Below are positions 17,997-44,502 of a stretch of DNA of 44,502 bases, piece by piece; the stretch's first letter is position 1; each line of letters opens with the position of its first letter. A program made the translations under genes and the position numbers. Under the pieces are notes generated by a model that had not been told where the DNA came from, ran no database searches, and saw only the letters and a list, made by a program, of their open reading frames with translations. This DNA comes from Patescibacteria group bacterium (GTDB lineage Bacteria; Patescibacteriota; Minisyncoccia; Portnoybacterales; UBA2143), in the NCBI GenBank assembly GCA_018829245.1, contig JAHJUH010000067.1:1-44502 (forward strand), given 5' to 3'.

Positions 17997-19267
17997 ATCT
18001 TTTTTATTAATCGATAAATTGGTCGACTTATTTTATAAAGAAAAGGTGTTGAAATAATAAATCCTTTTATTTGCCTCATTTTTTCTTTAGCTGCCTTTTT
18101 CCTATCGTATTGCTTGTAAACATTGTAGGTAAAATTCCGAACTTCTTTTTTTATCTGACTAGAACTTAAATCTGGTAATTCTAAAACAGATTCATCCATA
18201 TAACAGTCGATATGACCTTTAGTAATTAATCCCTGTTCAATGCACATTTGGCCCAATAAGGTTTCAGGATAAGGATAGAAAGCAGTTACTTGCATAAAAT
18301 CAGGTTTAATCTTAGCATTGAGGTTAATTGTTTCTTGAATAGTTTCCTTAGTCTCTCCGGGAATACCAATCATATTAAAAGAAAATGTTTTAATTCCCAC
18401 CTTCTTAGCTAAATTAAATAATTCAACAACCTCTTGATCTGAAATACTTCGCCCCAAAACTTCTTTTCTTAAATCTTGATTACCAGTTTCTAAGCCAACC
18501 TTGATCAAATTACAGCCAGCCTTCTTAAAAGCTATTAAAGTCTCTTCATCCACAGCTCCAATTCGAACATTGCATTCAAAACTCATATCAAACTCTTTTG
18601 AATATTTATCACAAAACTCCAAAACCCAATCTTTGTTTAAAGAAAAAGTATCATCATCAATTTTAAAATGTTTAAAATTATATTCCTTCTTAAAATCTCT
18701 AATCTGTTCAACAGCTCGATCAACGCTCATGAATCTTAAATATTGACCTTGACCAGAGTAAATTTTTTTAAAAACATGATTACAACAATAAGTACAGTTA
18801 AAAGGACATCCTCTTGAGAATATAAAGCGTGGAGAGATCTCTCCACCATCAGCTTCCTTAAAATATTTAAAAATTGAATAATCTGGAAAAGGTAATTGAT
18901 CTAAATCAATTAATAAAGGAGCGATATTGTTTTTTATAACCTGATCTTTCCTTTTAAACCAAAAATTATTAATATCTGTATAATCTTTTTTCTGTTCAAT
19001 TCGATTAACCAATTCTAAAAGAGAATCTTCAGCTTCACCAACGCAAATTCCATCAAAACTATCTTCTTCAACTGCTTCTTCTGGTCTAATAGTAGAATGA
19101 ACTCCTCCTAAAAATACTGGAATATCAAATTGGGACTTGATTTTTTTAGCTATCTCAATAGCATAGAAATACTGATGAGAATTCGCCGATAGGCCAATAA
19201 CCTGTGGCTGATATGATTGAATAAAAGAATTAATTTGATCAATTTCTTTTTTATCCTCTATCTCCAA
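17993..19267 (-). CDS. B12-binding domain radical SAM protein, paralog R3. The N-terminus is cut by an in-frame TAG; the ancestral start is at 19375.
   Basis: Cluster motif GCPFNCTYC, VFLGGVH, CVGEAE. The same frame continues upstream to ATG 19375 (MKILFIAPKIGS*AKWLVGISFLSAVLKKAGHKVDLL) with TAG at 19337-19339. The intact ORF begins only at TTG 19267. Confidence 0.75.
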   Translation of the reverse strand: MEIEDKKEIDQINSFIQSYQPQVIGLSANSHQYFYAIEIAKKIKSQFDIPVFLGGVHSTIRPEEAVEEDSFDGICVGEAEDSLLELVNRIEQKKDYTDINNFWFKRKDQVIKNNIAPLLIDLDQLPFPDYSIFKYFKEADGGEISPRFIFSRGCPFNCTYCCNHVFKKIYSGQGQYLRFMSVDRAVEQIRDFKKEYNFKHFKIDDDTFSLNKDWVLEFCDKYSKEFDMSFECNVRIGAVDEETLIAFKKAGCNLIKVGLETGNQDLRKEVLGRSISDQEVVELFNLAKKVGIKTFSFNMIGIPGETKETIQETINLNAKIKPDFMQVTAFYPYPETLLGQMCIEQGLITKGHIDCYMDESVLELPDLSSSQIKKEVRNFTYNVYKQYDRKKAAKEKMRQIKGFIISTPFLYKISRPIYRLIKKI

Positions 19268-35429: not shown

Positions 35430-36473
35430 TTATTTATAAAGCTTAATAATTCTACCAATTAAATTATCTAAGTTATGATTTTTAACAACTTGTTCTCTTA
35501 AGAACAAGCCTATTCCTTTTAATTGATTACTATTGATTAACTTAAGTATTTTTTGAGATAAATCTTTAGCATCCTTTTCTTTAAAAAGCATCTTGTCTAC
35601 AAAGGGACCTAAATCAGATGCAAAAGTTTTATTACAAACTAAAACTGGCAAACCAGAAGCCATTGATTCAAGAACTGCTTTATCAGGCGAACCAGTTGGA
35701 CAAAGATTAATTGATAAATCTGATTCTTGATAATATCTTGGCAATTCTTGATTGGGGATTAAGCCCTTAAATCTAATAACCTTATCTAACCCTTTATTCT
35801 TAACCATCCATTTTAGCTTATCAAAATATATTTCCTGTTTCTTTATACCCGGCCCACCAATAATATCAACTTTAATATCTATCTTGTCGCGAATAATTTC
35901 GATTGCTTCAATTAAAGTTTCGTAATTTTTAATAGGAGAGATTCTGCCTACAGAAATTACTCTAAAAATATCGTTTTTATTTTTTTGCTCAGCTGGTTTA
36001 AATAATTCCGTATCAATACCATGTCCAACAACTACTTTCTTATCTGACTTTAAACCAAATCCTTCCTGGGTTGGAGTAATAATCTTTTCAGCAAAAAAAG
36101 CCATTAATTTAACTCGCCAATTAATTGCCTTGTGCGAATACCAAGAAACAATTTTTTTCCTACGAAGTTTAGCCAAAGGACCAATTAAAATTGTATATTC
36201 TGGATTTTGATGACAGAAAACACCATCAACTTTTCCAATAAACTTAAAAGCACCTCTATAAAAATTAATGAATTCTCTTAATTTATTCTTACCATTTTCT
36301 TTACCTAAAGAAAAAACTTCAACATTATTAGATAATCCTTTAGTATTTCCTTTTTCTAAGCAAATTACCTTTAAAACATCTACTTGCTGCCCCATCTTCT
36401 TAACCCAACCATAAGTAAATCCAGCTTGGGCATCGTCCCTATCAACTTTTCTTGTGATCATTAGTAATTTCAT
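35430..36473 (-). CDS. GT4 (GT-B fold) glycosyltransferase
   Basis: VGRISPIKN linker motif, SPDKAVLESMASGLPVLV. Confidence 0.8.
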   Translation of the reverse strand: MKLLMITRKVDRDDAQAGFTYGWVKKMGQQVDVLKVICLEKGNTKGLSNNVEVFSLGKENGKNKLREFINFYRGAFKFIGKVDGVFCHQNPEYTILIGPLAKLRRKKIVSWYSHKAINWRVKLMAFFAEKIITPTQEGFGLKSDKKVVVGHGIDTELFKPAEQKNKNDIFRVISVGRISPIKNYETLIEAIEIIRDKIDIKVDIIGGPGIKKQEIYFDKLKWMVKNKGLDKVIRFKGLIPNQELPRYYQESDLSINLCPTGSPDKAVLESMASGLPVLVCNKTFASDLGPFVDKMLFKEKDAKDLSQKILKLINSNQLKGIGLFLREQVVKNHNLDNLIGRIIKLYK

Positions 36474-37048
36474 TTGATTAAATATATATGATAACCGGAT
36501 GGTTGTTGTCCGGAAAAAAACTTATCGAAAAATCTAATTAATGGGGTTAAAATTCTTATCTTTCTTAAGGGAGTTAAATTAAAAACTGTTTCTAAATTTC
36601 CTCGGACTGGACAAATTTCTATTGAATTAAAATCTCTAAATAAATACTTGATTCCATCCTTTGTATATCGATAATAGTCTTTATAACCACCCTTATGAGC
36701 ATGATAAGGATATAAAAAAGGAACATAAACAAGACATTTACCACTATCTTTTAAAACTCGGTAAATTTCTTTAGCTGCTTTCCCCGGTTCTTTAACATGC
36801 TCTAAAACGGCTTTACAAATAATAGCATCAACTGATTTATCTTCAAGAGGAAGATTACAAACATCACCAATAATATCTGGTTGATAACTTGCTTCGATAT
36901 CTAAGGTCTTGTAATCACTGTTTTTAAAAAGTTCTTGATATTTATCTAAATCTTTTTGAAAACGAAAACCACCACCAATATCTAAAATCTTCTTTTCTTT
37001 GGCAATTTCCTTTATCTTATCATCAAAGAATTTTTCCCACTTAATCAT
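36470..37048 (-). CDS. Class I SAM-dependent methyltransferase
   Basis: ILDIGGG (motif I), LDIE, VDAIICKAVLEHV, LKDSGKCLVYVP. The tracked TTG start is at 37063. ATG 37048 gives an ATGA overlap with the upstream TGA. Confidence 0.75.
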   Translation of the reverse strand: MIKWEKFFDDKIKEIAKEKKILDIGGGFRFQKDLDKYQELFKNSDYKTLDIEASYQPDIIGDVCNLPLEDKSVDAIICKAVLEHVKEPGKAAKEIYRVLKDSGKCLVYVPFLYPYHAHKGGYKDYYRYTKDGIKYLFRDFNSIEICPVRGNLETVFNLTPLRKIRILTPLIRFFDKFFSGQQPSGYHIYLIK

Positions 37049-38175
37049 ATTAGATCCTTCCAAAAACTAACTATTTTACCAATAATCTTTTCTTGATTGA
37101 ATCTTTCTTTAACCATTACTTTACCAGCTTGGGCTATTTCCTCAGCTTTATCTGGATTATTAAGTAAATAAAGAACCTTTTTAGCCAAAGCTTCGCTATC
37201 ACCAATCGGTACTAAAAATCCATTGACTCCATCTTTAATTACTTCCTTGGAACCAGTTGTCTCTGTAGCCACGACAGGAAGCCCAGAGGCCATAGCTTCG
37301 ACTAAAACCTTACCAAAGCTCTCTGAGCAAGAAGAAGAGACATAAACATCTGAAGCGTGATAATAGTTAATTAAATCTTCTTGTTTAATTTTTTTAACCG
37401 AATTTAAGATTAAATTATCATCCCCTTTAATTTTACCTGTTAAAGAGATATTAGCTCCTAATTGCCAAAAAGCAAGTTTTTTGTAGTCCTCATAAACTAA
37501 TTCAATCGTTTTATACAATGTCTTATAATCCTTAGAAGGATCTTTTCGTCCGACATTAATAATCGTTTTATGATTCTTATTCTTTAATCTTAACTTATTA
37601 ACTTTTTTCTCATCATATTTTTCAAATTTTTCTACATTAACTGGCGTTGGAATAACTCTAATTTTTTTATTAGGAACACCAACTTTGATTAATTTGTCTT
37701 TAATCCCAGAACTGACAACTCGAACTCCATCAGCTCCACTAACAACAAACTTACTTAATAAAAGAAAAAACCAATTAAACCACCAACGTCCTTTTTCAAA
37801 AAGCCAATATTTATTATTCCAAAAATCACCATGAAAATGGACTAACAAAGGAATCTTAAATCTTTTTTTAACAAACCAACCTGCTAATCCAGTTAAAAAG
37901 GGATCTTGGCAAACAATCAAATCATATTTATCTGGCCAATAAATTCTTTTAGCTATTTCAAAAGCATCAAGAATGTAATTTATCTTATTTTTTGAATTAG
38001 TTGGATGAACCTTTAGATTCTGACCAAATTCTTTCTTTTTAAAACCTTTTTTAGTAAAAACAATAATATCCAATTGCCCAGCTTCTTGAGCATATTTTTG
38101 ATGGCGTTCTAAAACATCGCCGCTATAATCGGCGCCTAATAAAGTCCTATCAATGCTAATCATTAAAATTCTCAT
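37045..38175 (-). CDS. GT4 (GT-B fold) glycosyltransferase
   Basis: SESFGKVLVEAMASGLPVVATETTGSKE and NGFLV. Confidence 0.85.
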   Translation of the reverse strand: MRILMISIDRTLLGADYSGDVLERHQKYAQEAGQLDIIVFTKKGFKKKEFGQNLKVHPTNSKNKINYILDAFEIAKRIYWPDKYDLIVCQDPFLTGLAGWFVKKRFKIPLLVHFHGDFWNNKYWLFEKGRWWFNWFFLLLSKFVVSGADGVRVVSSGIKDKLIKVGVPNKKIRVIPTPVNVEKFEKYDEKKVNKLRLKNKNHKTIINVGRKDPSKDYKTLYKTIELVYEDYKKLAFWQLGANISLTGKIKGDDNLILNSVKKIKQEDLINYYHASDVYVSSSCSESFGKVLVEAMASGLPVVATETTGSKEVIKDGVNGFLVPIGDSEALAKKVLYLLNNPDKAEEIAQAGKVMVKERFNQEKIIGKIVSFWKDLI

Positions 38176-39656
38176 GTTTTTGTGACAAACCTTTTAGCTA
38201 ATTTATAATCCCAAGGAAGCCAGAAACATTTCATTTTCCATCTTAACTGACATAATAATACAAAAAAAAGTTTTAAAAGCTTATTTACTTTAATGGTTGA
38301 ACCCATAGCACTTTCGATTGAATGAGCTCCAAATCTGACATAGGCCTCTAATGATTCTATAAACCCAGGGTTATCAAGCCAAGGAAATTTACTGATATCT
38401 AAATAATTTAATTCATCTTTAACTGTTTCTCCCCACTGATCTAGTGATTCAGGTTCTTGCCAGCCCACGGCTAAGCATTCTTTGTAAAGTTCTGAACCAG
38501 GATAAGGTCTAAAAGCCTGAGGCCCTAAAATTTGAACCTGATCGCCTAATTTAACTAACTCATCAATTAATTCTAATGTTTCCATTACTTCACTTCTAGT
38601 TTCGCCCGGTAAACCAGCCATAAAGGAATATTGGGGAATAATTCCATACTTTAAACACATCTTAGCTGAATTGATTACATCTTCGGGCATAATGTCTTTC
38701 TTAATTTTTTTTAAAATACGAGGACAACCTGATTCTGCACCAAAAGACAGTAGATAGCAACCAGATTCTTTTAACTTTTTAATAAATTCTTCATCAATTA
38801 TTCCTTCTCTTAAATAATTAGCCCGAACAGTTGTTTCCCAGGGTGTAATTAAATCTTCTTCTATCATTCCATTAATAATCTGTTTAGCTCTTTTAATATC
38901 AACAAAAAAGTTTTCATCCCAAAAACGAAGTTTTTTTGCTTTCCCGCCCTGAAAGGGCGAGGTCTCGCCTTTGGCGGAAAAATATTCTTTGTTTTTTATT
39001 ATCCTTATATCTTCTAGAACTTGCTCAGCTGTTCTTGTCCGCCAATGGTTTTTAAGAATAGCGTTGATACAAAAAGTACAGCGATGAGGACAACCTCGAG
39101 AAGTTAAAGAAGGAATTAAATGAAGATTTTCTAAAATTTCTTTAGGCACTAACTCCCAATTAAAAAGAGGCATTTGAGCTGGATCATGTAATTCTCGTGG
39201 TTGGTTAATAATAACCTCATCTCCTGATTGATAGGCAATCCCTTTAATATCATTTAGAGATTTACCATTAACAATATCCAACATAGTTAACTCACCTTCG
39301 CCATAACAGACCATATCAATCAAAAAATGACTAGCTGTTTGTTTAATAAAGAAACTCGGGTGAGGACCACCCCAAATAACCTGACAATCAGAGTTATTTT
39401 CTTTAACTAAACGAGATAATTCTAGGGCCTCTGGAATTTGTGTCGTCATAACTGAAATTCCGACATAATCACAATCTTTAACTTTTTCTTTAACTAAATC
39501 TAAATAATTTTTCTGCCTGACCCCGTCAATGATCTCCACCTTAATATTATAAAAATCTAAATATGTAGCAATACTTAATAATCCAACGGAAATAGAGCTA
39601 TCGTAATTCTCCTTATTAATATTAAAAGCCGGATTGATTAGTAAAACTTTAGACAT
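38172..39656 (-). CDS. B12-binding domain radical SAM protein (class B), paralog R6, carrying a 15-codon GC-rich insert
   Basis: MSKVLLINPA, YVGISVM, VIWGGPHPS, VCYGEGE. Cluster motif GCPHRCTFC. The tracked ORF starts at 39671, but ATG 39656 matches the paralog N-termini. The insert SAKGETSPFQGGKAK lies at 38934-38978. Confidence 0.9.
   Translation of the reverse strand: MSKVLLINPAFNINKENYDSSISVGLLSIATYLDFYNIKVEIIDGVRQKNYLDLVKEKVKDCDYVGISVMTTQIPEALELSRLVKENNSDCQVIWGGPHPSFFIKQTASHFLIDMVCYGEGELTMLDIVNGKSLNDIKGIAYQSGDEVIINQPRELHDPAQMPLFNWELVPKEILENLHLIPSLTSRGCPHRCTFCINAILKNHWRTRTAEQVLEDIRIIKNKEYFSAKGETSPFQGGKAKKLRFWDENFFVDIKRAKQIINGMIEEDLITPWETTVRANYLREGIIDEEFIKKLKESGCYLLSFGAESGCPRILKKIKKDIMPEDVINSAKMCLKYGIIPQYSFMAGLPGETRSEVMETLELIDELVKLGDQVQILGPQAFRPYPGSELYKECLAVGWQEPESLDQWGETVKDELNYLDISKFPWLDNPGFIESLEAYVRFGAHSIESAMGSTIKVNKLLKLFFVLLCQLRWKMKCFWLPWDYKLAKRFVTKT
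38943..38977. repeat. GC-rich multi-hairpin element E1 embedded in frame in radical SAM gene R6
   Basis: CCCGCCCTGAAAGGGCGAGGTCTCGCCTTTGGCGG. CGCCCT pairs with AGGGCG, GGCGAG with CTCGCC, and CGCC with GGCG. GC content is far above the flanking A/T runs. Confidence 0.6.
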
Positions 39657-39657
39657 A

Positions 39658-40818
39658 TTACAAATTCTCAAAAATCATTACTGTTTCTTTAACTAGATCG
39701 TCCCAAGAAAATCTTTTTAAATCTTCCTTGGCATTACTAACCAATCGATTAGCTAGTTCTTGATCATCTAGAATTCGACTAATCGCTTTAAACCATTGTC
39801 CTTTATCCCGATAATCAACTAATAATCCCGTTTGACCGTTTTTAATTGTCTCTAGATTACCACCAGCTTTAGTGGTGATAACAGGTATCCCCACCTTCAT
39901 GGCCTCCAAAATAACAAAGGACATTCCTTCATAATTTGTATTTAAAACAAAAACATCAGCCATTTTTAAATAAGCAACAACTAATTGACGGCTAATCCGA
40001 CCAACAAAAAAAACATTTTCCTCTACATCTAAATCAAGAACTAATTTTTCTAAATTCTTCCTTTCTGGACCCTCGCTAATAATGACGAATTTAATATCTC
40101 CATATTTCTCAATAAGTCGAGGCATAATTTTGATCAACATATCAACACCCTTCCAAGGGGTTAAGCGAGCATTAGTTAGAATAACTCGTCCAGAAATATT
40201 AAGTTCTTTTTTTAAATCTACTTTCAAATCATCGTTTAAATCTAAAAAATCAACTGAGTTGTAAATTACTTTAATTTTCTCCTCGGCTACCCCAATTTTT
40301 TGAGCTAAATCTTTAAGAAAATTACTGACAACAATGACTTTATCAGAATTAAGTAAAATCTTTTTTCTAATTTTTTTACGCTTTTCAATTAAATGAGAGT
40401 ATTGCTTATCCTGAAAAGTTAAAATATCATCTGTAGTTATTCCCTGACTTAAAGCCGTTTCCCAAGCTGAATCACCAACAAACCTAGTCACCAACTTCTT
40501 ACCCAAAAATCTTTTGATCAATAGGGCGGTTAAGCCAGCTGTATATAAATCCTGGTTGTAAATAATATCTGATTTTAAAGCCAACCAAAAACCTTTGATT
40601 AAATAAAGAAAACTTTTTAAAAAAGAAGGCCATTTATCAGAAATAACTTTAACTGAATAAGGATATTTTTTTGCTTCATTTTTATTACCGAAAGTTAAAA
40701 CAGTTACCTGATAACCACGTTCAATAAGATCTTTATTAAGCTCCTTTAATAAGGTTGGTGGTCCACCAACTCCTTTTAAGAAAACTCCAGTTAAAATTAG
40801 AATTCTATTATTTCTCAT
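39658..40818 (-). CDS. GT4 (GT-B fold) glycosyltransferase
   Basis: GVGGPPT near the N-terminus, YEGMSFVILEAMKVGIPVITTKAGGNLE, GLLV. Confidence 0.85.
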   Translation of the reverse strand: MRNNRILILTGVFLKGVGGPPTLLKELNKDLIERGYQVTVLTFGNKNEAKKYPYSVKVISDKWPSFLKSFLYLIKGFWLALKSDIIYNQDLYTAGLTALLIKRFLGKKLVTRFVGDSAWETALSQGITTDDILTFQDKQYSHLIEKRKKIRKKILLNSDKVIVVSNFLKDLAQKIGVAEEKIKVIYNSVDFLDLNDDLKVDLKKELNISGRVILTNARLTPWKGVDMLIKIMPRLIEKYGDIKFVIISEGPERKNLEKLVLDLDVEENVFFVGRISRQLVVAYLKMADVFVLNTNYEGMSFVILEAMKVGIPVITTKAGGNLETIKNGQTGLLVDYRDKGQWFKAISRILDDQELANRLVSNAKEDLKRFSWDDLVKETVMIFENL

Positions 40819-41933
40819 AATTTATTGAAAATATTTTCCATCTTTTGAGCAACGCTATCCCAAGTATATTTTTCCCTAACTAGATTTAACCCATTATTGA
40901 TTAATGTTTCCCTAAGTTCATCATTCCCTAAAATTTCTTTAATCTTTTCGGCAATATCTTGAGGATTATTTACCTCACAAAACAAACCTGTTTTTCTGTC
41001 TTCCAAGAAATCAACTATTCCACCCACGGGCGTAGCGATAATTGGCACTCCAGCCGCCATTGCCTCTAGAAAAGAAATGCCTAGACCCTCAGATAAAGAA
41101 GCTCGAACAAAAACATCGGCTGAAGAATAGTATTTTGCTAAATCTCTATGATTAATCTCCCCTTCAAAAACAACTTTATCTTCAAGATTTAATTTTTTGG
41201 TTAAATTCTTTAACTCTTTTTCTTGTTCTCCACTTCCAATAATTATAATTTTAAATAAAAAATCTAAATATTGTCCGGCTTTAATTAAATCAGCTACGCC
41301 ATTTTTCTTGACTAGGCGAGAGACAGTTAAGATTTTGAGGTCCGACCTTTGCAAAGGTCGGACCTCAAAATCTGATCTAAATACATCTAAATCAACTCCA
41401 TTAGGGACAACTTTGATGGGACATTTTGCTCCCATATTTTTAGCCCAATTAGATAAAAAATTGCTAATCGCCTGGATATAGTCAGTTTGCTTAAAAATCT
41501 GATAAAACCAGTATTTAAAAATACCAACTTTTTTTAAAATTTCTTCTGGAGGATCACCTTCTTGGAGGGTTAATAGCCATGGTATATGAGGAAATTTTTT
41601 CTTAAAACGTAAACCTAAAAACCCACCGAAAGAGGCCATAATAGACCAAACTAGCTTATAATCTCTTTTTTTATTTAAACTTATTGCCTTTTTTAGACCT
41701 AGAAAAGGCAAGAGATATTTATCGAAATTAGAACCAAAACCAACCCGGTAAACATTAATATTATTAATTTTCTCTTCTTCTTTTAACTCTTTCTGTATTT
41801 TGGCTGTGATCATATCAAACTCAAAACCCTCAATTCGGTCTGTTATTTCCTTAACAGCCACTTCTGCCCCACCTATTAAAGGAAAATAAGCCGTAGAAAA
41901 AATTAAAACTTTTGGCACTTGATTATTGGCCAT
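40815..41933 (-). CDS. GT4 (GT-B fold) glycosyltransferase containing a perfect 44-bp palindrome in its interdomain linker
   Basis: IGGAEVAV near the N-terminus, SEGLGISFLEAMAAGVPIIATPVGGIVD. The palindrome at 41330-41373 encodes DFEVRPLQRSDLKI. Confidence 0.85.
   Translation of the reverse strand: MANNQVPKVLIFSTAYFPLIGGAEVAVKEITDRIEGFEFDMITAKIQKELKEEEKINNINVYRVGFGSNFDKYLLPFLGLKKAISLNKKRDYKLVWSIMASFGGFLGLRFKKKFPHIPWLLTLQEGDPPEEILKKVGIFKYWFYQIFKQTDYIQAISNFLSNWAKNMGAKCPIKVVPNGVDLDVFRSDFEVRPLQRSDLKILTVSRLVKKNGVADLIKAGQYLDFLFKIIIIGSGEQEKELKNLTKKLNLEDKVVFEGEINHRDLAKYYSSADVFVRASLSEGLGISFLEAMAAGVPIIATPVGGIVDFLEDRKTGLFCEVNNPQDIAEKIKEILGNDELRETLINNGLNLVREKYTWDSVAQKMENIFNKL
41330..41373. repeat. Perfect 44-bp palindrome E2 (22+22, no loop) inside a GT4 coding sequence
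   Basis: AGATTTTGAGGTCCGACCTTTG|CAAAGGTCGGACCTCAAAATCT. I verified it base by base as its own reverse complement. Confidence 0.9.
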
Positions 41934-41955
41934 ATATGCTTTAATATACTATAAA
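41934..41955. promoter_or_regulatory. 22-bp divergent intergenic region with face-to-face -10-like boxes; candidate leaderless starts
   Basis: ATATGCTTTAATATACTATAAA. On the plus strand TATACT ends 5 nt before ATG 41956. On the minus strand TATATT ends 9 nt before ATG 41933. Neither start has a Shine-Dalgarno. AT-rich sequence makes chance matches likely. Confidence 0.3.
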
Positions 41956-43143
41956 ATGACTAAAAATTCAACTTGCCTCGCCGAAGCAAGGCGTAGGCGG
42001 GTTCTATACATAATTACTAAATCTGTCTGGGGCGGGGCTGCTAAGTACGTCTATGACCTCTCAACTAACCTAATGAGTGGGTTTGATGTGGCTATAGCTG
42101 CTGGCCTGCCTCGTAGCAAGGCGGGTGGACAGGGTCAATTTTATAAAGAGGTAAAAAAAACCAATATCCCCTATTATCAAATCACCAATTTCCAACGAAC
42201 TATTAATCCCTTTAAGGATTTGTTCGCTTTTTTTGAGATTTTAAGCCTCCTTTTCCAGCTAAAGCCAGATATCATCCATGTTAATAGTTCTAAAGCCGGT
42301 GGTATTGTTGGTTTAGCTGGTTTGATTTATAAAGTATTTTATAATAAAGAAATTAAACTTGTTTTTACCGCTCATGGTTGGGCTTTTAATGAAGATCGTC
42401 CTCAATGGCAAATTAGTCTAATTAAATTCTTTAGCAAAGTAACTTCTTTATTTTATGACAAAATAATTTGTGTTTCTGAATATGATCGCCAAATGGCTCT
42501 TAAATATAAAATCGCGCCAGAAAGAAAATTAATTACTATTCATAATGGCATAGATATTAAAAATATTAATTTTCTTTCTAAAGAACAAGCTCAAAAAAAA
42601 TTAATCGGTCGAGAATCTCCTTTACTTATCGGCACAATTGCTGAATGGACTAAGAATAAAGGATTAATTTATTTAATTAAAGCGACTCAGATCCTCGAAT
42701 TAAAAGAAAAAGAATTTGATGTTATTCTCATCGGTAGCGGAGAAAATCCAGATAAAGAAAAAATGTATGATTATGATAAAAAATATAACTTGGATAATGT
42801 CCGCTTAATTGAATTTATGCCTGAGGCAATTAAGTATCTTAAAGGGTTTAATATCTTCATTCTTCCATCTCTTAAAGAAGGATTACCTTATACGATCATT
42901 GAAGCCATGGCCGCTCAGCTACCTATTATTGCCACTAATGTTGGTGGTATTCCAGAAATGATAGAGAATAATATTAATGGTATTTTAATAGAACCAAAAA
43001 ATCCCGATTTAATCGGGGAAAAAATTACTTATCTAATTAACAATCCAGAAAAAGCTCAAGTTATGGCTCAAAAAGCCAGACAAAAAGCAGAACAAAAATT
43101 CAGTTTGAATAAGATGATAGAAAAAACAAAAAAGCTATATTAA
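41956..43143 (+). CDS. GT4 (GT-B fold) glycosyltransferase with two GC-rich motif copies in its 5' region
   Basis: VLYIITKSVWGGAAKYVYDL N-terminal strand, NSSKAGG, KEGLPYTIIEAMAAQLPIIATNVGGIPE. The tracked ORF uses TTG 41926, which would overlap the divergent gene start. ATG 41956 is preferred. Confidence 0.8.
   Translation: MTKNSTCLAEARRRRVLYIITKSVWGGAAKYVYDLSTNLMSGFDVAIAAGLPRSKAGGQGQFYKEVKKTNIPYYQITNFQRTINPFKDLFAFFEILSLLFQLKPDIIHVNSSKAGGIVGLAGLIYKVFYNKEIKLVFTAHGWAFNEDRPQWQISLIKFFSKVTSLFYDKIICVSEYDRQMALKYKIAPERKLITIHNGIDIKNINFLSKEQAQKKLIGRESPLLIGTIAEWTKNKGLIYLIKATQILELKEKEFDVILIGSGENPDKEKMYDYDKKYNLDNVRLIEFMPEAIKYLKGFNIFILPSLKEGLPYTIIEAMAAQLPIIATNVGGIPEMIENNINGILIEPKNPDLIGEKITYLINNPEKAQVMAQKARQKAEQKFSLNKMIEKTKKLY
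41972..42001. repeat. GC-rich hairpin element E3 at the 5' end of a GT4 coding sequence
   Basis: CTTGCCTCGCCGAAGCAAGGCGTAGGCGGG. GCCTCGCC pairs with GGCG(T)AGGC around a 7-nt loop. It shares TGCCTCG and AGCAAGGCG with E4. Confidence 0.7.
42103..42128. repeat. GC-rich hairpin element E4, a second copy of the E3 core in another reading frame
   Basis: GGCCTGCCTCGTAGCAAGGCGGGTGG. CCTGCCT pairs with AGGCGGG (one G-T) around a 7-nt loop. Core TGCCTCG-N1-AGCAAGGCG compares with TGCCTCG-N4-AGCAAGGCG in E3. Confidence 0.7.
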
Positions 43144-43144
43144 A

Positions 43145-44502
43145 ATGAAAGTTATTCTTGTTTCCCCTTCATTTAATGTTCATACTGTTGCACCTCCTTT
43201 AGGACTAGGCTATATTGCCTCAGTCCTTTTGAATAATGGCCACCAAGTTGAAATACTAGATCCTTCAAAAGAAAAGCTGTCTCTTGATGAGATTACCGAG
43301 ATTATAATCACTAAAAATCCAGATGTCTTGGGTTTAAGTATCCTTACTCCCAGATATAATACTAGCAAAGAATTAATTGCTAAGGTTAAAGAAAAAGCAC
43401 CTCAAATTAAAATAATTGTTGGTGGCGCCCATATTTCTGCCTTGCCAGAAATATCAATTCAAGATATCAAAGCCGATTATGCTGCAGTCGGTGAAGGAGA
43501 ATACACTTTACTTGAACTTCTAGAACATCTTCAAGGAAATAGAAAATTAGAAGATATTCCTGGTTTGATATATTATCAAGATGGAATAATTAAATCTAAT
43601 CTTCGACGACCTAATATTGAAAACTTAGATTCAATTCCTTTCCCAGCTTGGCATTTAATGGATCCTCGTGAATATCCACCAATGCCCCATCAATTCTTTT
43701 TTAAAAAATATCCTGTCGCCCCAATCATGACTACTCGAGGTTGTCCTCATATCTGTAGTTTTTGTGCCGCAGAATCAATTTGGGGTAGGAAATATAGGAC
43801 TAGAAGCGTTAAAAATATTGTTGATGAAATTGAACTTTTAGTCACTAAGTATGGAGTTAAAGAAATACATATTGAAGATGATAACTTCACTTTAATTAAA
43901 AAACATGCCCTAGATGTTTGCAATGAGATAATTAGACGTAAATTAGATATTGTTTGGAAATGCCCTAATGGAGTCCGAGCTGATAGCTTAGACGATGAAT
44001 TGCTAGCCAAAATGAAAGAATCTGGTTGTTATCAATTAGCTTTTGGGATTGAATCAGGAAATCAAGAAATACTTAACAGTGTTAATAAACATCTAGACCT
44101 TAAGATTATACCTGAGGCAGTCAGAAGAGCTAAGGATGCTGGATTAGAGGTTCACGGGTTCTTTATGATTGGTTTCCCAAATGAAACATTTCAAACAGCC
44201 ATGGATACAATAAGATTTTCTAGGTCTATTGGTCTTGATGTAGCTAATTATGCTACCTTAGCTTATCTACCTGGGTCAGCTCTTTTTAGGGAATACATTA
44301 AAAACAAAAAAACCGACTCCATAGATTGGGGAAGTATTAACTATTATACACCCCAAGCTACGGTCGGCCTCACTTCAGATCAACTTAAAAAAATTCAAAG
44401 AAAAGCTTTACTTAGATTCTACTTTTCTCCGAAAGTCTTAATCGGTCATCTTTTTAAATTAAAACTTAAACAAATACCCTATTTACCCAAAGCCATGTTT
44501 AA
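43145..44502 (+). CDS. B12-binding domain radical SAM protein (class B), paralog R7; 3' end lies outside the window and it is absent from the ORF track
   Basis: I translated it by hand from ATG 43145 with no stop to the window end. MKVILVSPSF, PPLGLGYIAS, DVLGLSIL, IIVGGAHIS, AAVGEGE. Cluster motif GCPHICSFC, IEDDNF, C-terminal LLRFYFSPKV. Confidence 0.85.
   Translation, partial: MKVILVSPSFNVHTVAPPLGLGYIASVLLNNGHQVEILDPSKEKLSLDEITEIIITKNPDVLGLSILTPRYNTSKELIAKVKEKAPQIKIIVGGAHISALPEISIQDIKADYAAVGEGEYTLLELLEHLQGNRKLEDIPGLIYYQDGIIKSNLRRPNIENLDSIPFPAWHLMDPREYPPMPHQFFFKKYPVAPIMTTRGCPHICSFCAAESIWGRKYRTRSVKNIVDEIELLVTKYGVKEIHIEDDNFTLIKKHALDVCNEIIRRKLDIVWKCPNGVRADSLDDELLAKMKESGCYQLAFGIESGNQEILNSVNKHLDLKIIPEAVRRAKDAGLEVHGFFMIGFPNETFQTAMDTIRFSRSIGLDVANYATLAYLPGSALFREYIKNKKTDSIDWGSINYYTPQATVGLTSDQLKKIQRKALLRFYFSPKVLIGHLFKLKLKQIPYLPKAMF

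Follow-up and report, generated by a model that had tools for sequence, protein, structure and literature searches.

Two short GC-rich hairpin elements, here termed E3 and E4, lie within a single glycosyltransferase gene of a Patescibacteria group bacterium. The stretch of DNA analysed, referred to throughout as the window, comprises 44,502 nucleotides (nt) with a GC content of 29.7% (JAHJUH010000067.1 of assembly GCA_018829245.1), and the contig is also carried by NCBI assembly GCA_043825535.1 as JBDRRV010000037.1. The host gene, at 41956-43143 on the plus strand, was identified from its open reading frame (ORF) and translation. It encodes a GT4 family glycosyltransferase of 395 amino acids (aa) with Pfam domains PF00534 and PF13439, identical to a protein from a metagenome-assembled genome (MAG) listed at NCBI as glycosyltransferase family 4 of a Patescibacteria group bacterium. 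E3 occupies 30 nt (41972-42001, plus strand; CTTGCCTCGCCGAAGCAAGGCGTAGGCGGG), starts about 15-16 nt past the ATG and reads (T)CLAEARRRR(V). E4 (42105-42125, plus strand; CCTGCCTCGTAGCAAGGCGGG) lies in the region 42103-42128 (GGCCTGCCTCGTAGCAAGGCGGGTGG), constitutes a full 21-nt copy of the dispersed unit described below and adds (G)LPRSKAG to one of the enzyme's surface loops.

As the initial annotation had pointed out, the two elements share the cores TGCCTCG and AGCAAGGCG, spaced 4 nt apart in E3 and 1 nt apart in E4, with core-bearing spans at 41974-41993 and 42107-42123. The pattern TGCCTCG-N{1,4}-AGCAAGGCG matches the window at these two places only, with 0.00 matches expected from 100 dinucleotide-preserving shuffles. 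The cores are indeed read in different frames, the T of TGC being codon position 1 in E3 (T-C-L-A-E-A-R-R-R-R) and position 2 in E4 (G-L-P-R-S-K-A-G-G). E3 carries, in addition, an internal AGGCG-T-AGGCG duplication. The ORF stays open through both insertions and, judged from the ORF, both are probably translated, the peptide segments relevant to their read-through being AAGLPRSKAGGQG and NSTCLAEARRRRVLY. An assembly artefact is excluded for both, because the same sequence is present in three independent assemblies: the NCBI assembly, the ENA assembly and a 97.4%-identical JGI contig (L006) from another sample.

Comparison with homologues bore out the proposal that both elements are lineage-specific insertions. 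Nucleotide alignment with a relative whose protein is 83% identical (L005) yields clean gaps of 30 and 21 nt, and both sites are empty there, reading ...AAATCAAT/CCTATAT at the N-terminal site and GCAGGC/GGACAA at the E4 site (slashes mark the junctions); relative to this sequence, E3 sits between TCAA and TTCTA. Another relative (L003, 84% identical) carries 48 nt with E3-like and E4-like parts at the N-terminal site (CTTTGCCTCAGCAAAGGCGAGT) and an empty E4 site. The N-terminus found most often in 120 GT4 homologues is M-A-K-K-S-I-LYIITKS, and LPRSKAG occurs in the window protein alone. Many lineages have extra N-terminal segments, differing from one another and placed exactly between KS and (I/V)LY (STCLAEARRRR, STCPPKPWRRR and STWPRHSSTERRR), and shortened remnants such as STRR also occur in this alignment. 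Across lineages the N-terminal site holds different hairpins, including a 16-bp perfect stem in L048, and the empty alleles are unstructured. In an AlphaFold2 model of the host protein (mean pLDDT 88.8) strands and helices alternate over the full length. E3 is predicted to precede beta-strand 1 (residues 14-20) and the E4 peptide (51-57) to lie in a loop between a strand (43-50) and a helix (61-67), in line with the earlier suggestion that both are positions where additional residues are tolerated. pLDDT values below 50 occur only at residues 1-10 and 54-56, matching both insertions.

E4 belongs to a dispersed family. A scan with the pattern TGCCTCG-N{2,3}-GCAAGGCGGG, restricted to one genome per species, matched at least 120 stretches. 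Among the matches listed, the dinucleotide CC, which is absent from the search pattern, precedes 74 of the 85 from low-GC genomes (52% GC or less) and 4 of the 38 from high-GC genomes, and the latter have diverse, chance-like flanks and loops. On account of the CC prefix and the loop forms of the low-GC matches the unit was defined as CCTGCCTCG-N2/3-GCAAGGCGGG. It is 21 or 22 nt long; its 7-bp stem, in which one T·G wobble is conserved, closes a loop of 7-8 nt, with three dominant loop forms, CCG, CG and ACG; since the stem includes the wobble, the unit folds better on one strand. The base on its 3' side is variable (C 35, T 18, G 12 and A 9 among the 74 CC-flanked copies listed). Hosts among the matches listed include, from the Patescibacteria, Saccharibacteria, Nomura-, Roizman-, Levy-, Collier-, Kerfeld- and Falkowbacteria and WWE3 and, from elsewhere, Bacteroidota, Omnitrophica, Planctomycetia, Bdellovibrionales, Ignavibacteria and Gammaproteobacteria. 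E4 agrees with the full-length consensus, including the CC prefix and the position of the wobble, and over the full length of a covariance model, R1, E4 attains 37 bits, the copy in L006 described below 37.4, and an intergenic copy in this genome (L001) and one in L014 36-37.

Further copies had been predicted if the repeat were real, and they were found: one intergenic in the same genome, one in a radical-SAM gene of the 97.4%-identical strain and at least 74 in low-GC genomes. Within the 53 kb of this genome examined there are three core-bearing copies (E3, E4 and L001 18637-18658). The element is thus not a private feature of this genome, as might have been supposed at first, being widespread, mostly extragenic and often clustered with hairpins of the NTS/Ssn type considered below.

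Copies within genes, defined as those well inside an ORF of at least 150 codons, number 17 among the 74 CC-flanked copies listed, and all 17 are 21 nt long; among the 57 non-genic copies listed, the 21-nt form accounts for 14 and the 22-nt form for 43 (Fisher p = 1.2e-8). This difference is partly built in, since 22 nt inserted into a gene would disrupt its ORF and the copy would then be counted as non-genic. The result shows that the copies persisting within genes are of the frame-neutral form. Twelve of the genic copies listed are sense and five antisense, and five of the six frame-orientation classes are used, yielding peptides such as PASRQGG, LPRGKAG, RLAARQ, PALPRGR and CLAGKAG. The proposal that DNA rather than peptide is conserved is therefore supported by the homologues, by further copies in several frames and both orientations, and by the shuffle test. 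Genes carrying the unit include those for DnaX, the CCA-adding enzyme and leucyl-tRNA synthetase (LeuRS), and in the latter two it lies in segments that have no counterpart in aligned solved homologues. In the LeuRS gene of a Patescibacteria MAG (L109) the unit is located within a 42-aa insertion relative to the Thermus enzyme, together with a partial reverse copy (CCGGCGAGGCAGG) a few bases off, an arrangement suggesting that larger palindromes can form within genes by the pairing of units.

Presence of the unit differs between close strains. L006 is colinear with window positions 35977-44502 at 97.4% identity, with E1/E2 (a neighbouring insertion described below), E3 and E4 unchanged, and the sole indel in this 8.5-kb alignment is a 21-nt unit, CCTGCCTCGCGGCAAGGCGGG, that L006 carries on the sense strand of a minus-strand radical-SAM gene, at a site that is empty in the window (38462/38463). 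This copy equals E4 with two loop bases changed and is read in the same frame, adding LPRGKAG, which is missing from all other radical-SAM orthologues examined. Indels between relatives were determined with MAFFT on colinear blocks, BLAST btop gaps being too fragmented. L025 and L027, which are 95.7% identical, differ by an E3-type insertion, and additional block differences of 18 and 30 nt were found between close pairs (L025/L027, and L014/L017 at 89%). The in-gene GC-rich blocks recovered are of 18, 21, 30 or 33 nt, all multiples of three; outside this set fall a 34-nt block at a gene end in L005 and a few AT-rich indels of 10-11 nt. In L031 (proteins P0028 and P0038) a reversed unit, CCCGTCTGCCGACGAGGCAGG, lies exactly at the E4 site, so that the two insertions at this site are independent events. 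In L143 a gene for an ssn-like GIY-YIG protein is preceded by an empty NTS hairpin, GTCATTCCCGCGAAAGCGGGAATCCAG, which recurs downstream of the gene enlarged by the unit, exactly 22 nt long. No target-site duplication is present at the E4 site, the L006 site or the L143 pair, where filled and empty forms differ by exactly 21 or 22 nt.

Two further observations concern the same loci. The 210 mismatches between the window and L006 are unevenly distributed, with about 33 in 38000-38500 and about 116 in 40250-41500, and with 38750-40000 nearly identical; these clusters next to hairpin elements suggest that the glycosyltransferase and radical-SAM genes contain tracts of recombination. A distinct family of 18-nt in-frame indels (GTCCTGAGCTTGTCGAAG and relatives, in either orientation) occurs in GT4-cluster loci (L014 4156, L015 4874 and L024 2009), and its presence also differs between relatives that are 86-93% identical.

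Several other identities were considered and set aside. A viral origin was rejected on the basis of only five exact unit copies among 2.9 million viral contigs. The window has no match to the curated Rfam 15 families at gathering score, and permissive Rfam searches of 38300-42300 and of L001 18400-18900 produced only chance-level matches, well under gathering scores. Identity as tRNA or tmRNA was rejected, none being found. CRISPR repeats and tRNA fragments received no support (one unit match, in L110, falls in a tRNA variable arm), nor did an intron or translational bypass, the ORFs being continuous and the units multiples of three in length. We found no published description of the unit: no paper was located that gives its sequence or that links Patescibacteria to in-frame palindromes, and it appears, as far as the literature search goes, to be previously undescribed.

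Among known systems, repetitive extragenic palindromic (REP) elements are GC-rich imperfect palindromes of about 20-40 nt that occur with RAYT (Y1) transposases and are extragenic by definition. The unit resembles them in being short and GC-rich with a 7-bp stem, and in that 57 of the 74 CC-flanked copies listed lie outside long ORFs. It also shares with REP/RAYT and IS200/IS605 systems a strand asymmetry, the lack of a target-site duplication, dispersal and clustering with other repeats. It differs from REP elements in lacking a conserved 5' GT(A/G)G, since the consensus starts CCTGCC and the GTAG of E4 lies in the variable loop, and from both systems in having no common target tetranucleotide at four filled sites. 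No RAYT gene was seen, the ORF comparison given below not being specific for Y1 transposases. A MITE (miniature inverted-repeat transposable element) was rejected because terminal inverted repeats plus a target-site duplication are lacking. Hairpin elements are also known from fungal and sponge mitochondria, and the GC clusters of yeast mitochondria are GC-rich palindromes of 30-50 nt, with optional in-frame clusters in var1. Like the unit, these clusters invade an AT-rich genome, are optional between strains and in some cases lie in-frame within a protein gene; they are, however, organellar and unrelated in sequence, and no homology is implied.

The Rickettsia palindromic element (RPE), described by Ogata et al. 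2000 and, according to the review by Delihas 2011 (PMC3184786), about 105-146 bp long and confined to Rickettsia, provides a bacterial parallel; in-frame genic repeats are described there for RPE, BRE and others. As portrayed there, RPEs are selfish palindromes of an AT-rich reduced genome that lie in-frame in genes, add peptides at tolerant positions and are conserved as DNA across different reading frames (PMC3184786). The present elements likewise leave ORFs intact in different frames, but the insertions are of 21, 30 and 36 nt, falling short of the RPE size, and the unit of 21-22 nt (30-36 nt in derived copies) occurs in many phyla and is mostly extragenic. Chenal et al. 2025 (PMC11893778) tied NTS/dRS3 repeats, or 'Ssn-related motifs' (SRM), to the GIY-YIG single-strand nuclease Ssn (cd10448-type) and pointed out an insertion sequence (IS)-like NTS-ssn-NTS layout and a parallel to REP/RAYT. 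These repeats too are short (20-50 nt) oriented hairpins that are conserved across phyla and clustered in intergenic mosaics, and they are rarely genic (2% in N. meningitidis) (PMC11893778). E3, E4 and E1/E2 nevertheless lack the ATTCCC-N8-GGGAAT core and the oriented CGTCA...CYRG flank by which such motifs are defined (PMC11893778). Since the unit departs from NTS and REP in sequence features, from RPE in size and from MITEs in terminal repeats and target-site duplication, it was filed in the general class of small palindromic dispersed repeats that are able to sit in-frame.

About 6 kb past the end of the window, on the same contig, an intergenic region (L001 18580-18668) carries two NTS/dRS3-like hairpins in inverted orientation, spanning 18580-18606 (GTCATTCCCAACTTGATTGGGAATCCAG) and 18621-18668 (CCTGGATTCCCGC...GCGGGAATGAC), the second of which holds a 22-nt unit (18637-18658) in its loop. 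These hairpins tie this genome to the Ssn/NTS repeats described in 2025. Composites of NTS and unit occur in L121, L141, L142 and L178 as well as in this genome (L001 18624-18668), and in L121 and L143 the composite directly borders an ssn-like gene. Units lie at the tip of a longer hairpin in 15% of cases, compared with 2.8% of control positions, and unit loci have about ten times the density of NTS/SRM word matches that GT4 loci have. A tblastn search with an ssn-like protein of 95 aa gave matches in 5 of 83 unit loci, in none of the GT4 loci and none in the window. A GT4 homologue (P0006; L010 673-748) contains a further in-frame insertion with the hairpin GTCATTGCGAGC...GCTCCTCGCAATGAC, translated as ...RAERSNLEKEQGIAASPSAPRNDN..., and an outer hairpin repeat of the same type borders an ssn-like gene in L147.

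A REP/RPE-like selfish hairpin repeat, dispersed, GC-rich and strand-asymmetric, is in our judgement the probable source of E3 and E4, which would be copies of it that are tolerated at permissive protein loops. What is observed is that the elements are insertions, that the family crosses phyla, that genic copies have 3n lengths, that insertion is seamless, falls at permissive sites of proteins and occurs in both orientations, and that presence or absence differs between close strains. According to the proposed mechanism the unit, mostly extragenic in low-GC bacteria and especially in Patescibacteria, would occasionally land in coding DNA, where only stop-free copies of 3n length would survive, at tolerant positions, for instance in a surface loop or at an N-terminus. 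Surviving copies would simply be translated in whatever frame and orientation they had landed, as LPRSKAG for E4 and CLAEARRRR for E3. The unit may spread in the form of single-stranded DNA, mobilised by a hairpin-specific enzyme that acts in trans and is encoded elsewhere. A GIY-YIG nuclease of the Ssn type and a Y1 (RAYT/IS200-like) transposase would be obvious candidates, and the peptides and mRNA hairpins are probably passengers with no selected function.

A number of results weigh against this explanation. Model R1 aligns E3 to exactly 41972-42001 yet at a score of only 17 bits (E about 4), and E3 is for this reason a less certain member, diverged or expanded; it also appears to have been inherited at its site across lineages rather than freshly inserted. 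Folds of the kind that had been drawn for both elements are predicted, and that of E3 is energetically exceptional (-20 kcal/mol, z = -3.8; 0 of 200 shuffles as good). That of E4 is not (-13.5 kcal/mol, z = -1.4; equalled by 19 of 200 shuffles), and the case for E4 is therefore one of sequence recurrence rather than folding energy. The partial circularity of the 3n comparison belongs here, as does the fact that the copy count for this genome covers 53 kb only. Around the site at 38462 mismatches are clustered (33 in 500 nt), and recombinational allele replacement is on that account as likely there as insertion or excision in place. The four filled sites share no target motif, with 5' bases CTGG, CGGG, TTCG and ACCA in this small sample, and the absence of a common target makes for a poor fit to an IS200/IS605-style rule. 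No recurrent protein family beyond housekeeping genes was found beside the unit among 883 ORFs from 83 low-GC unit loci, in a clustering not specific for Y1 transposases, and the sole suggestive cluster was a GIY-YIG family at four loci. A GIY-YIG homologue is absent from the 53 kb of this genome examined, and an ssn-like gene is directly adjacent in 2 of 74 loci only, linked there through the enclosing canonical NTS hairpin.

A bolder proposal, which we put forward tentatively and regard as doubtful, is that the unit is itself active mobile DNA, among the smallest known, a single-stranded hairpin that a widespread hairpin-specific enzyme, perhaps from a clade of the Ssn GIY-YIG nucleases, cuts and pastes in trans without a seam. 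If so, it would be common to at least eight phyla, its 21-nt subfamily would colonise essential genes (those for DnaX, LeuRS, the CCA-adding enzyme and glycosyltransferases) without breaking them, and it would be a continuing source of protein-loop insertions in Patescibacteria and other low-GC bacteria.

Among alternatives to a selfish repeat, one would have the hairpins be selected mRNA structures, with E3, near the AUG, tuning translation initiation or mRNA stability and the coding being incidental. Both elements do fold better on the sense than on the antisense strand (E3 -20 vs -14.2 kcal/mol; E4 -13.5 vs -10), the wobble pairs in E1, E3 and E4 are G·U on the sense strand, and different hairpins recur about 15 nt past the AUG in many lineages, where the idea keeps some weight. 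We nevertheless judge it unlikely. Relatives that are 83-96% identical do without the hairpin altogether, the unit is mostly intergenic elsewhere, antisense in 5 of the 17 genic copies listed and, in L031, reversed at the E4 site, the E4 fold is no better than that of shuffles, and a permissive N-terminus accounts for the recurrence without function. In a sliding 44-nt scan of minimum free energy the four strongest folds of the window all lie at 38.9-42.2 kb, but energy alone is not discriminating, because Markov shuffles also reach -20 kcal/mol. A strict perfect-stem scan of the window recovered E1 and a 44-nt palindrome only, E3 and E4 being missed on account of bulge and wobble pairs.

The 44-nt palindrome (41330-41373), which is perfect, with a 20-bp stem and a 4-nt loop (AGATTTTGAGGTCCGACCTT tgca AAGGTCGGACCTCAAAATCT), lies inside a neighbouring GT4 gene (40815-41933, minus strand), where it encodes RSDFEVRPLQRSDLKI in a variable linker. 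Like E3 and E4 it is an in-frame hairpin, though of unrelated sequence, and its predicted fold is strong (-34.1 kcal/mol, z = -9.6). The region is length-variable among orthologues, and L037 and L059 hold other palindromes in the linker. This palindrome bears on a second alternative, slightly less probable again, that template-switching or slippage during replication builds and perfects palindromes locally (quasi-palindrome correction) with no dispersed source. It has no second copy in 1.5 Mb of collected DNA, and in L006 a G>A change in one arm is matched by the complementary C>T in its partner, which leaves the palindrome perfect, as arm-to-arm templating predicts; the internal duplication of E3 points the same way. 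Local origin cannot, on the other hand, account for one 21-22-nt sequence, T·G wobble and CC prefix included, recurring across phyla and in genes that are unrelated, nor for both orientations at one site. Template-switching best explains the 44-nt palindrome, and local templating may account for later remodelling of E3, though not for how E4 arose.

GT4 enzymes act at the membrane, and it could be argued that the inserted peptides are adaptive, RRRR serving as a basic tag for membrane association or the E4 segment as a Gly/Lys-rich loop near the nucleotide-sugar site. Most N-terminal variants do end in basic residues (ERRRV, WRRRV, RQRRI and KRRRI). The basic run is, however, the 3' arm GGCG-N-AGGCGGG read in one frame and is lacking in the closest relatives, the same DNA yields unrelated peptides elsewhere (PASRQGG, CLAGKAG, RLAARQ and PALPRGR), and model confidence at these residues is very low, all of which renders this explanation improbable. 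Finally, short GC-rich sequences do fold and look alike easily, and the z-score of E4 is a modest one, but a chance likeness of two GC-rich patches, or an artefact of assembly, is refuted to the point of being negligible by the lack of any shuffle match, the three identical assemblies and the two unrequired bases shared by 74 of the 85 low-GC matches listed.

Another hairpin insertion, E1/E2 (38942-38978, minus strand), lies in the gene for a B12-binding radical-SAM enzyme (38172-39671, minus strand, identified as an ORF with Pfam domains PF02310 and PF04055) that also contains the 38462 site. It is a GC-rich double-hairpin block of 36 nt, flanked by TTT and AAA; its sense strand, TCCGCCAAAGGCGAGACCTCGCCCTTTCAGGGCGGG, encodes SAKGETSPFQGG. 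It is missing from 13 orthologues, which read EYF-K(G/N)KKLRFWDENFF, and its fold is predicted at -19.5 kcal/mol (z = -2.7). The initial annotation had remarked that E1 shares its design with E3. The pattern CCTCGCC-N{3,9}-GGCG does match E3 and the minus strand at 38945-38962, with 0 matches expected, so that the likeness of design stands; kinship does not follow, E1 belonging to a different sequence family. Membership of E1/E2 in the family of E4 was rejected since, despite the similar CCTCGCC...GGCGGG design, there is no R1 match up to E = 10. One look-alike of E1/E2 occurs in L085 (CCTCGCCCCTTTGGGGCGGGG) and a partial one in L191.

A very long same-strand run of genes (7830-41933 and L001) makes up a large surface-glycan biosynthesis cluster, rich in GT4 and GT1 glycosyltransferases, B12-binding radical-SAM enzymes, S-adenosylmethionine (SAM) methyltransferases, an epimerase, a polysaccharide deacetylase and a Wzy-type polymerase. 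All hairpin insertions of the window lie within the last 3.3 kb of this cluster. Cumulative GC skew declines from about 7 kb to a minimum at about 42 kb, where the genes switch from the minus to the plus strand, close to the divergent pair 40815-41933(-)/41956-43143(+) at about 41940; this minimum could mark a replication origin or simply reflect transcription-linked skew.

The nesting of the unit within NTS hairpins beside ssn-like genes provides a concrete substrate for the question of whether Ssn-type nucleases or another enzyme mobilise hairpin repeats, which was left open by Chenal et al. 2025 (PMC11893778). For the proteins of Patescibacteria and other low-GC bacteria, the results imply that odd short insertions and peptides, such as LPRGKAG, PASRQGG, RLAARQ and CLAGKAG, may often be translated hairpin repeats, and recognising them as such aids annotation, alignment and structure prediction. 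Outside Rickettsia, the family would be a clear example from bacteria of protein sequences shaped by selfish DNA, with a simple quantitative signature of 21 nt in genic copies and 22 nt in non-genic ones.

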